A stretch of 63,984 nt of DNA, the filler included, from Bdellovibrionota bacterium (GTDB lineage: Bacteria; Bdellovibrionota; Bdellovibrionia; Bdellovibrionales; JAEYZS01): the NCBI GenBank assembly GCA_963169515.1. It is 6 parts of 6 records of this genome, joined end to end, with 100 filler letters (N's around TTAATTAATTAA, not from the genome) between each part and the next. Parts side by side here need not be neighbours in the genome. Positions count along the whole stretch, not along the records: positions 35,250 to 54,180 come from CAUJEF010000065.1; 5 more parts are not named here. One strand, written 5' to 3'. Of the stretch, positions 35,254-37,217 are shown one piece after another (the first letter of the stretch is position 1; each line of letters begins with the position of its first letter). The translations under genes were made by a program, and so were the position numbers. The notes under the pieces are model-generated. The model was not told the origin of the DNA. It made no database searches and saw only the letters and a program-made list of their open reading frames with translations.

Positions 35254-36087
35254 ATGACAAAAGGTGCCGTTTATATTGTATCCGATGGAACAGGGGAAAC
35301 GGCTTCACTTATGACAAAAGCCGCTCTTGTCCAATACAGCGGTTACGACGTCAACCTTATTCGCTGCAAGAATGTTCGCACAGAAACCCAAATCGAAGCA
35401 ATCTTAAGCGAGGCAAAAACAAATCACGGTTTTGTGGTATTCACGATTGTTTCGCCAGAGCTACAGACAAAAACTCACTTGCTTGCAGACCAATACAAGG
35501 TTCAACATATCGATTTACTTGGCCCACTCCTTGTGGGTCTTGACAGTTATTTTGGCGTAAAAAATTCGGCACGGACCGCTGGTATTTTGCGCACTGTGAA
35601 TGAAAGTTATTTCAGGCGAATTGAAGCGATCGAATTTACCGTGAAGCATGACGATGGCAAAGAGCTTCGCGATCTGGATAAATCTGATATTGTGCTGGTC
35701 GGAATTAGCCGTACAAGCAAAACTCCATTGTCAATTTTTCTAAGCCATAAGGGGTGGAAGGTTTCTAACATCCCACTAGTACTGAATGTTCCGGTTCCAG
35801 AAGAAGTTTTCAAAGTAGATCAAAAAAAGGTTGTGGGCCTTACGATCAATCCGACCAAATTATCAAAAATTCGAGAAAATCGCCTAGAAAAACTGGGGAC
35901 AAATTCAACCGAATACGCAAGCTTGGATCATATTTCCCAAGAAATCGAATATGCCCATTCGATTTTCGAAAAAAACAAACGCTGGCCTATCTTTGACGTG
36001 ACCGAAAAAGCTCTCGAAGAAACCGCAACGGACATCATCCGGCTTGTTTCAAAGCGCCTCGGGATCAAGACAGAAGAATTTTTTTAA
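35254..36087 (+). CDS. ppsR: PEP synthase/PPDK regulatory protein (kinase/pyrophosphorylase, DUF299)
   Basis: VSDGTGETA, YFRRIEAIEF, HDDG, GISRTSKTPLS. Confidence 0.92.
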   Translation: MTKGAVYIVSDGTGETASLMTKAALVQYSGYDVNLIRCKNVRTETQIEAILSEAKTNHGFVVFTIVSPELQTKTHLLADQYKVQHIDLLGPLLVGLDSYFGVKNSARTAGILRTVNESYFRRIEAIEFTVKHDDGKELRDLDKSDIVLVGISRTSKTPLSIFLSHKGWKVSNIPLVLNVPVPEEVFKVDQKKVVGLTINPTKLSKIRENRLEKLGTNSTEYASLDHISQEIEYAHSIFEKNKRWPIFDVTEKALEETATDIIRLVSKRLGIKTEEFF

Positions 36088-36157
36088 GCGCGCCGAGACC
36101 TCGATCAGCCCCTTGGGTTTTAACTAAAGAATTTAGAGTTCCAAGCCCGCCCTAGGA

Positions 36158-36298
36158 CTACCTCAGTATTTCATAAAGAAAATAAACCAACTTCCAAAGA
36201 AGAGCGAACCAACGTACAACGCTCCAAAGGCCGTTAAGTTTACGGAGAACCTTCCGATAATTAACATAACAAAGCTTGTGCGCTTTTCTACGTTTCAT
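36158..36298 (-). CDS. Small cationic amphipathic peptide, candidate type I toxin (46 aa)
   Basis: MKRRKAHKLCYVNYRKVLRKLNGLWSVVRWFALLWKLVYFLYEILR; strong GGAGATAGGGGG RBS; structured leader and trailer. Confidence 0.6.
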   Translation of the reverse strand: MKRRKAHKLCYVNYRKVLRKLNGLWSVVRWFALLWKLVYFLYEILR

Positions 36299-36370
36299 AT
36301 CGCCCCCTATCTCCAAGGAGGACCTACCATAGTCCGAAGCTAACCTGAGCCTCGGCACTATGGTAGTTGC
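36274..36370 (+). ncRNA. Candidate cis-antisense antitoxin RNA
   Basis: TTTACG-N17-TAACAT promoter (36239-36267) inside the toxin ORF; transcript would cover the start codon and RBS and end at hairpin 36324-36366; ends approximate. Confidence 0.45.
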
Positions 36371-36532
36371 AGTTTACTGATGCCATTCAAATGGATTTTA
36401 AATTTATCTCGAGAACGCTACGTCCGAAATACGGACATTCAACATTCTCATGGAGAAGAATGGTTGCGTCATAAAGTCAGTATTTTTGGGGTAGTTGTTT
36501 AGAGTAAAGCTTAAGGAATTTTGGGCAACTTG

Positions 36533-37217
36533 TTAGGGTATGAGAATCGTGAAATCAAAATCGGACCATAGCCCTTGCTCGCGACTTCCACCAATGTAGT
36601 GCGGCCAAAGTGGTGTTTGTTTTCTTATGCTGTCATTGCTGAAAATAACTGGCTTATCTTTTAAACTCAAGAGCTGGCCACCACATAGACGATTCCAAGA
36701 CACTAACTCGTCAGGACCTGGGTCTGATGCATATTGCAAATTCAAAGAAATAAAAGAGGCGTGGCTTGCGCGGAGGAGGTCACTGAGTTTTACCCTGTCC
36801 TTTTCATCAGATGAAATATGCGCTTTCCCGACGAACATGATCGCCTGCTGGCATTGAGACGATAAATGCTTCACTACATTCCGAAAAATTGCCACATCTC
36901 TAACATTGATATCTATTCCCTGGCCAAAATTCTCGGAATGATCGACCGTAAAAACCTTAAACCCATTCTTTGTTGCCGCATCTAATATAGGTCTGAAATG
37001 TCTTAAGAACTCGTTAGCATCAGATCGCTCTTCCAATGACAAATCCCCTTTTAGAGCCTCTGTAATTCTTTGAATAAATTCATTGGCAGCATGGCTCGAA
37101 GCCAACTCCAAAAAAATACACTTTCCAGACTTCATTTGTTTAGAAAAATTTGAAATTATTTCGGTAAAAATCTGAGAATCATCATGCTCCGATTACGGCA
37201 ACTATCTTTTCCACGTC
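36533..37217 (-). pseudogene. ChaN/EreA-like protein, apparently 5'-truncated and frameshifted
   Basis: CIFLE, VFTVD, INVRDVAI, FVGKAH motifs; upstream KIVAVIG and EHDD lie in different frames; abuts the LysR stop. Confidence 0.5.

Follow-up and report, generated by a model that had tools for sequence, protein, structure and literature searches.

The window analysed here is a 63,984-nucleotide stretch of DNA joined from parts of the genome of a Bdellovibrionota bacterium, whose assembly comprises 2.38 Mb in 173 contigs and is 96% complete; the locus described below lies on contig C65. It consists, in order, of a kinase/pyrophosphorylase (PF03618) gene, an element with a small basic ORF, an orphan gene for a 200-aa protein in which no Pfam or NCBIfam family was matched, and a LysR gene (Table 1). 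Of 6 family relatives, 5 have the PF03618 and LysR genes facing each other with nothing but about 130 bp or less in between, and the contig of the sixth ends too early. From this arrangement the DNA at about 36088-37217 is taken to be inserted, and by comparison with the relatives the locus is a ragged insertion between core genes.

Table 1. Features of the element and its surroundings. Positions are those of the window, except where a contig is named.
Feature	Position	Strand	Remarks
Kinase/pyrophosphorylase (PF03618) gene	35254..36087	+	3′ end abuts trailer
3′ trailer arms of the 5′-3′ interaction	36090..36112	-	36100-36090 with 36358-36348; 36112-36103 with 36345-36336
Third long-range arm, over stop codon	36155..36161	-	pairs with leader 36335-36329; 7 invariant pairs in consensus fold
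Basic, amphipathic peptide ORF	36158..36298	-	candidate toxin
FliA/sigma-28-type promoter in ORF, TTAAG-N15-CCGATA	36234..36260	+	candidate antitoxin promoter
Sigma-70-like promoter candidate	36239..36267	+	overlaps FliA-type box; chance-level
Candidate antisense RNA, about 100-110 nt	36267..36376	+	both ends putative, from promoter position
5-bp stem with hypervariable 6-nt loop	36271..36286	.	loop at 36281-36276 in codons 6-8; possible site of antisense specificity
Shine-Dalgarno (SD) AGGGGG	36303..36308	-	AGGAGG in copy C30; four bases before ATG
Upstream anti-SD CCUCCU	36316..36321	-	6 pairs with SD kept in 5/5 copies
Leader: local 5′ hairpin or 5′ arms of the long-distance interaction	36324..36366	-	
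Candidate mRNA -10 box, TAnnnT	36371..36376	-	in 5/5 complete copies; without good -35; not kept as such in C98
TCCG-N5-CGGAC hairpin	36422..36436	.	also in C98 and in the genome's REP-like repeats
Dispersed 28-bp 11-6-11 site, variable centre	36449..36476	-	just upstream of all 7 copies
Left flank common to several copies of the 28-bp site	36477..36508	-	upstream limit of similarity between element copies
200-aa protein, same insertion	36533..37135	-	not at this position in 5 family relatives
Divergent member, 44-aa basic-hydrophobic ORF	C98:2025-2159		rank 5 in screen
Further 28-bp sites (27 in all)	e.g. C155:10953 and 11743, C142:6134 and 6956, C166:13481 and 14911, C19:5878		

The minus-strand ORF of 46 aa described in an earlier note on this DNA is present at 36158-36298, and its characterization as Trp-rich applies to the window copy only: among seven copies in the host genome W25 alone is invariant, with W30 replaced by L in 3 and W35 by G in 5. 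Across these copies the peptide has a net charge of +9 to +11 and retains a hydrophobic C-terminal half, and the hydropathy of the best 19-residue segment is 1.43-1.78, the window peptide being modest at 1.43. AlphaFold predicts one helix over residues 3-45 (pLDDT 82.9, from a shallow 7-row alignment). Purifying selection on the peptide was absent (pN/pS 0.8 overall and 1.31 without codons 4-8), and residue 7 is different in every copy. The strong ribosome binding site of the earlier note required correction; the likely site is AGGGGG (36308-36303), faced by an anti-SD at 36321-36316. All five complete copies contain an upstream ORF of 7-11 codons at -32 with a weak SD (-1.1 to -3.2), the long in-frame extension of which is broken in two of the five, and among these copies no conserved leader ORF with a good SD was found. 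The candidate toxin, together with a predicted RNA of 275-276 nt with putative ends, falls within the type I class of 20-60 aa and 150-400 nt given in the available text of PMC8594479.

A BLAST search of the host genome returned 40 matches, 8 of them strong (90-100% identity) and the other 32 short. Two of the strong places lie at the ends of contigs, share a 100-nt overlap and are likely to join, which leaves 7 ORF-bearing copies. Complete copies are found on C65 (the window copy), C58, C31, C166 and C30. Similarity among the copies runs from about 36508 to 36068, so that the element is larger than the 36088..36376 first assigned to it. The ORF is free of internal stops and indels in 7/7 copies; indels do occur in leader and trailer. 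Copy C78 has lost its leader along with the candidate -10 box of the mRNA, and copy C81 is without that box, the stop codon and the trailer; the antisense promoter discussed below is kept in both. That the two copies lacking a fold-back arm are also those lacking the mRNA promoter candidate fits toxicity of the product, with n=2.

In the folding analyses, the mRNA's 5′ end was placed at 36364, a putative start seven bases after the TAnnnT box. For the mRNA promoter, sigma-54 and sigma-28 types were also weighed by eye and set aside. The leader hairpin is present as the earlier note had claimed, with 10-nt arms at 36324-36333 and 36357-36366, and its proposed alternative, a pairing of the leader with the far 3′ trailer, rests on complementarity far above chance: the duplex reaches -36.8 kcal/mol, as compared with -20.9 ± 3.5 kcal/mol for shuffled trailers (0/2000 as good) and -11.9 ± 4.4 kcal/mol for random 276-nt windows of the genome, none of which (0/5000) attains the same value. 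The plus-strand version of the duplex gives just -20.9 against -36.8 on the minus strand, so the proposed G-U asymmetry is real. A further pairing suggested between CCUUGG, next to the ribosome site, and CCAAGG in the trailer is complementary, yet it accounts for 0.2 expected pairs in the full-length ensemble. Which fold prevails depends on the start site. The end-to-end fold-back expected from the earlier note is favoured with 5′ ends at or below 36365 and only there; the local 5′ hairpin wins from 36370 up, including a 5′ end at 36376, with the SD still mostly closed.

With the 5′ end at 36364 the end-to-end fold forms in 5/5 complete copies, with 18-21 expected pairs, and a fold computed from the alignment agrees with it and adds the arm across the stop codon. 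In the proposed paralogue comparison, compensatory two-sided changes numbered 0. Among the 21 long-range pairs, 97% of 105 cells are paired. Distinct variants within these pairs keep pairing in 10 of 13 cases, against 0.24-0.5 expected per change, all of them one-sided. There is no two-sided covariation, and the pairing measures were reached by 396-500 of 500 column shuffles. The SD is predicted to be closed in the nascent RNA (unpaired probability 0.12 or less in 5/5 copies), largely closed at full length in 3/5 copies and about half open in 2/5 (0.19, 0.15, 0.49, 0.56 and 0.06), and opened by 3′ trimming, with values of 0.90, 0.86, 0.73, 0.89 and 0.43 once the RNA is cut back to stop+8.

Within the ORF, the short stem-loop over codons 6-8 has a conserved stem and a loop with 7 different sequences in 7 copies, which differ from one another by 2-5 of 6 bases. 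Diversity is 0.67 in the loop and 0.064 elsewhere, and all 5 columns with at least 3 alleles in a 163-nt stretch lie inside it. Duplexes of an 8-nt seed are predicted at -11.1 to -13.7 kcal/mol for cognate combinations and at -6.5 kcal/mol for the best non-cognate one. The loop is predicted to be open in the full-length RNA as well as in the trimmed form. A copy-specific loop of this kind fits what would be expected of an antisense specificity site.

An antisense promoter inside the ORF had been proposed at TTTACG-N17-TAACAT. That sequence matches the consensus at 8/12 positions, a consensus scan returned 0 sites, and an equal match occurs in 14% of 3000 random 140-nt windows. Two candidates overlap here, and this one is probably not the right choice. 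The better candidate is a FliA/sigma-28 box of the attack-phase type of Bdellovibrio, and its activity is predicted. Exact TTAAG-N15-CCGATA is found in 6/7 copies. A 140-nt strand would contain it by chance with a probability of about 7e-5, for a motif spotted after the fact; its 6 exact 15-spaced occurrences genome-wide all lie in the element and are therefore counted as one event. According to the available text of PMC3627812, the B. bacteriovorus attack-phase consensus is TTAAG-N16-CCGATA, ascribed to FliA and found at 92 of 140 attack-phase starts and at 3 of 8 attack-phase sRNAs; the available text of PMC5430801 gives no promoter consensus. All 11/11 box bases of the candidate match this consensus from a species of another family of the same order. 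The differences are a spacer of 15 rather than 16 and an antisense position inside a small ORF. Spacer 15 also occurs at 2/6 flagellin genes of the host genome, in which fliA is present over the cut-off, and the regions upstream of genes are enriched for spacer 15 (8 sites) as well as spacer 16 (12 sites), against 1-5. Among the weaknesses of the box are a damaged -10 in copy C30 and a match of 3/5 at -35 in C98, and some of the CCGATA -10 pairs in addition with nucleotides preceding the AUG. If initiated near 36267, an antisense RNA would begin with the complementary stem-loop, as predicted in 4/5 copies; for the type I class, PMC8594479 (available text) gives cis-encoded antisense RNAs a length of 60-200 nt. 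No intrinsic terminator for it was found at the locus.

In a sequence-blind screen, small intergenic ORFs preceded by an SD, 333 in all, were ordered according to the energy of the duplex between their upstream and downstream regions. The complete copies took ranks 2, 3, 4, 6 and 7, and rank 5 fell to a divergent locus on C98. The top rank belongs to a 22-aa hydrophilic ORF at C89:12670-12738 (-56.6 kcal/mol). Upstream DNA of C98 scores 62.5 against the window and the next unrelated ORF 28.5 (328 compared, including copy C81); its protein is the best unrelated match, at 35 versus 31, and in a profile comparison the peptide similarity is not significant alone (3%, E 0.014). C98 keeps the SD, the anti-SD hairpin, the 5′ hairpin, the leader-trailer duplex, a -10 box, and the length, charge and hydrophobic tail of the ORF, and both it and the main copies keep bases reading CCGATA on the opposite strand. 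Its fold-back is not the minimum-energy fold for most of the ends tried. At its 3′ end C98 breaks into what is left, the first 15 codons, of a gene homologous to the 200-aa orphan gene in the window.

Homologues were sought widely, and none was found outside the species in genome, metagenome and viral collections, phages or plasmids. The element DNA was detected in 0/60 relatives. Peptide profiles run against 300 and 389 genomes of the class gave 7, 4 and 6 weak matches (E 3e-4 to 1e-2), those inspected being other frames or strands of longer genes or containing stops. The covariance model R1 matched 0/80 relatives; it also misses C98, which makes this a weak negative and indicates a limited sensitivity of the search. 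A search of 5.8 billion proteins retrieved no more than two sequences, at 96% and 83% identity, and none for C98, and 1.84 billion representatives yielded one of the same two together with a repeat-rich 10-residue match. A promoter-plus-start pattern searched in metagenomes occurred at no fewer than 119 loci, none of those listed having the layout. Nothing in Pfam, NCBIfam, PHROGs or Rfam exceeded the cut-off for the peptide or the RNA, libraries that may lack a model of the AapA peptide. In the ESM Atlas the best match was an unnamed protein (0.87), with TisB at 0.78, both below threshold and a lead only. Among the publications listed in literature searches, none described a type I system from Bdellovibrio-like bacteria, a result on which the T1TAdb tables and the supplements of earlier surveys could bear, and the available main text on T1TAdb (PMC8594479) mentions neither Bdellovibrio nor Deltaproteobacteria. 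A type I antitoxin driven by FliA was likewise absent from the publications listed.

The 28-bp site beside each copy belongs to a dispersed set. A matrix search found 28 sites scoring 18 bits or more in the host genome and 0 at 12 or more in the shuffled genome. They are intergenic, and their left and right flanks are reassorted. Their neighbours are orphan genes, beside which the sites form pairs in direct or inverted orientation, the ends of tRNA genes, and type II TA genes (DUF4258, HigB and ParE confirmed). There is no strand bias with respect to GC skew (16 versus 12), and the site was not found in 60 relatives or in viral contigs. The genome collection contains two exact matches, both within coding sequence, which were dismissed as chance. 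The set resembles dif/pdif Xer sites, as they appear in the available text of PMC2731167, in its 11-6-11 organization, variable central hexamer, one better conserved arm, reassorted flanks, and accessory and type II TA genes alongside, and differs from them in being without the ATAA-N6-TTAT core. To judge from its distribution, it looks like a site-specific cassette system. We rejected the site as the chromosomal dif; its inner sequence is ACGC-N6-TCGT, as opposed to ATAA-N6-TTAT, and relatives carry a canonical dif. The B. bacteriovorus dif (PMC2731167, available text) occurs once in each of 5/5 same-order genomes tried, and a near-identical dif in 4/4 same-family genomes. The family's canonical dif is not in the assembly and its flanking genes are on two contigs, so that it is probably in a gap. 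The host XerD helix is as in family relatives, and the matching XerC segment is unusually divergent. These dif and Xer observations are located at C149 / C151 and C140:56577-57512.

Copies C58, C31, C166 and C30 have short tails similar to the final codons of the PF03618 gene (window 36058-36087); the C58 tail comprises ten codons with four base differences from the window, three of them silent. Such tails suggest copying from this locus in a related strain. REP-like repeats are also frequent in the genome (about 60, 13, 20 and 39 matches for four patterns), many with a TCCG...CGGAC inner hairpin, and there are 12 Y1_Tnp (IS200-like/RAYT-like) matches. Two related integrase-bearing elements, on C129 and C170, lie beside tRNA-Gln and tmRNA and have several genes in common.

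Among the matches listed, the locus is present in 20 sequencing runs from 13 studies. The 3 DNA runs examined carry alleles mostly as in the assembly, and none of them contains an empty-site joint. On one contig (run X14, over 36160-36340) the 3′ flank is of the C81 type and the loop of the C31 type, a hint that copies have recombined or that the assembly is chimeric. In one RNA library, among the 4 of 24 listed runs examined, a 152-nt contig at depth 3.1 spans 36102-36249 with 9 differences; it is strandless, may derive from DNA carry-over and was given no weight as evidence, and assembled contigs cannot reveal strand or small RNAs.

The determinants of type I annotation used here were those in the available text of PMC8594479, PMC5416894 and PMC6733600. 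The earlier note had likened the organization to hok/Sok and aapA/IsoA alike, and the layout is closer to the latter than to the former. As in aapA/IsoA (available text of PMC5416894, PMC6733600 and PMC8594479), there are several chromosomal copies with loop sequences that differ between paralogues, an antisense RNA within the span of the mRNA that overlaps the ORF and has its promoter inside it (predicted here), an upstream anti-SD hairpin, a CU-rich stretch in the ORF, a 5′-3′ interaction and a predicted activation by 3′ trimming. In that system, according to PMC5416894, paralogue specificity rests on loop differences and IsoA1 binds only the processed mRNA form, through two 5′ UTR loops exposed after 3′ processing. 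Here, in contrast, the variable loop is in codons 6-8 and is predicted to be open in both full-length and trimmed RNA. The two also differ in sequence, with no match between them, in peptide length (46 aa here, 30 aa there), in the sequestration of the SD, by an upstream anti-SD here and a 3′ anti-SD there, and in the FliA-type look of the antisense promoter. Shared with hok/Sok and ldr/Rdl are the 5′-3′ fold-back, the alternative 5′ hairpin, repeated chromosomal copies and a peptide of 46 aa, within their size range. As described in the available text of PMC8594479, these families place the antisense RNA on the 5′ side of the ORF, where it works via a leader ORF, whereas both candidate antisense promoters here are inside the ORF.

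Taken together, the computations support the type I toxin-antitoxin reading of the earlier note, by way of 7 ORF-intact paralogues, the fold-back in 5/5, private loops, C98 and the lack of a family match. We consider it likely, with a probability of roughly three in four, that the locus belongs to an undescribed family of chromosomal type I modules, present in several copies and operating in the manner of aapA/IsoA. What the sequence contains, or what is computed from it, is the ORF, the fold-back, the hairpin with the anti-SD, the loop that is specific to each copy and the sigma-28-type box. The transcription, processing, translation and toxicity that we infer would proceed as follows. An mRNA of about 275 nt would start near 36364, its anti-SD closing the SD during synthesis, and when finished would fold end to end into a stable, poorly translated form. 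Trimming at the 3′ end would refold it to the 5′ hairpin form with the SD open. The antisense RNA would start inside the ORF, mainly from the FliA/sigma-28 promoter, meet the mRNA first via the 6-nt loop and then cover the start codon and SD; with first contact through that loop, each copy would silence only itself. Upon loss of the antisense RNA, the cationic amphipathic peptide would be made and the inner membrane damaged. The module may spread as a selfish passenger beside the dispersed 28-bp site.

The rival that we take most seriously, improbable as it seems to us, is an antisense-controlled small membrane protein with a regulatory or mild function, released by a developmental signal as FliA-dependent transcription stops at prey entry. 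It would account for a best antisense promoter of attack-phase type beside an alternative at chance level and for the modest hydropathy, and a lethal toxin would carry a high price if its antitoxin stopped in every cycle. The seven copies, each with a loop of its own, the ragged insertion and the absence from the site in 5 relatives nevertheless fit a selfish toxic module better, as do the loss of the mRNA promoter in both structurally broken copies and the absence of purifying selection.

A second rival is a repeat of MITE- or REP-like kind that codes for nothing and is bounded by imperfect inverted repeats at its termini, the ORF and promoter boxes being incidental: the element is multicopy, 90-94% identical and species-restricted, has a pN/pS near 1 and no covariation, and shares its TCCG hairpin with the REP-like repeats of a genome that has 12 Y1_Tnp matches. 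Yet the inverted repeat lies inside the element, not at its termini, and is effective on a single strand (-36.8 versus -20.9), the ends are ragged with no flanking duplication by eye, and indels avoid the ORF while hitting leader and trailer. A neutral repeat does not predict a single hypervariable loop, and the divergent C98 keeps the SD, anti-SD, ORF length, charge and hydrophobic tail; we regard this explanation as less probable still. Least credible to us is that the loop variation reflects selection on residues 7-8, or a mutational hotspot, in an antimicrobial-like effector peptide directed against prey or competitors. The charge of +9 to +11, the single amphipathic helix and a residue 7 that is different in all 7 copies are what such an effector might show, but the stem marks the precise limit of the variation, which extends to the silent third position of codon 6, the copies have neither an export signal nor a dedicated transporter next to them, and a silencing architecture implies danger to the producer.

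Beyond the type I reading itself, a more elaborate version can be formulated, to which we give limited credence. The toxin-antitoxin module would be gated by the life cycle, its antitoxin RNA coming only from FliA and its stored toxin mRNA being released at the switch to intra-prey growth or on transcription shutdown by phage; copies would be addressed by their private 6-nt loops, and the module would move between strains on an undescribed 28-bp cassette system. If the type I interpretation is right, the aapA/hok fold-back design would have arisen again with unrelated sequence, and the genome would hold seven natural orthogonal antisense pairs differing in six bases. The sequence-blind screen that recovered the family is applicable to other genomes. 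A toxin switch would be tied to the predator's master attack-phase sigma factor, and the long-open purpose of chromosomal type I systems would become directly testable over a synchronised life cycle.
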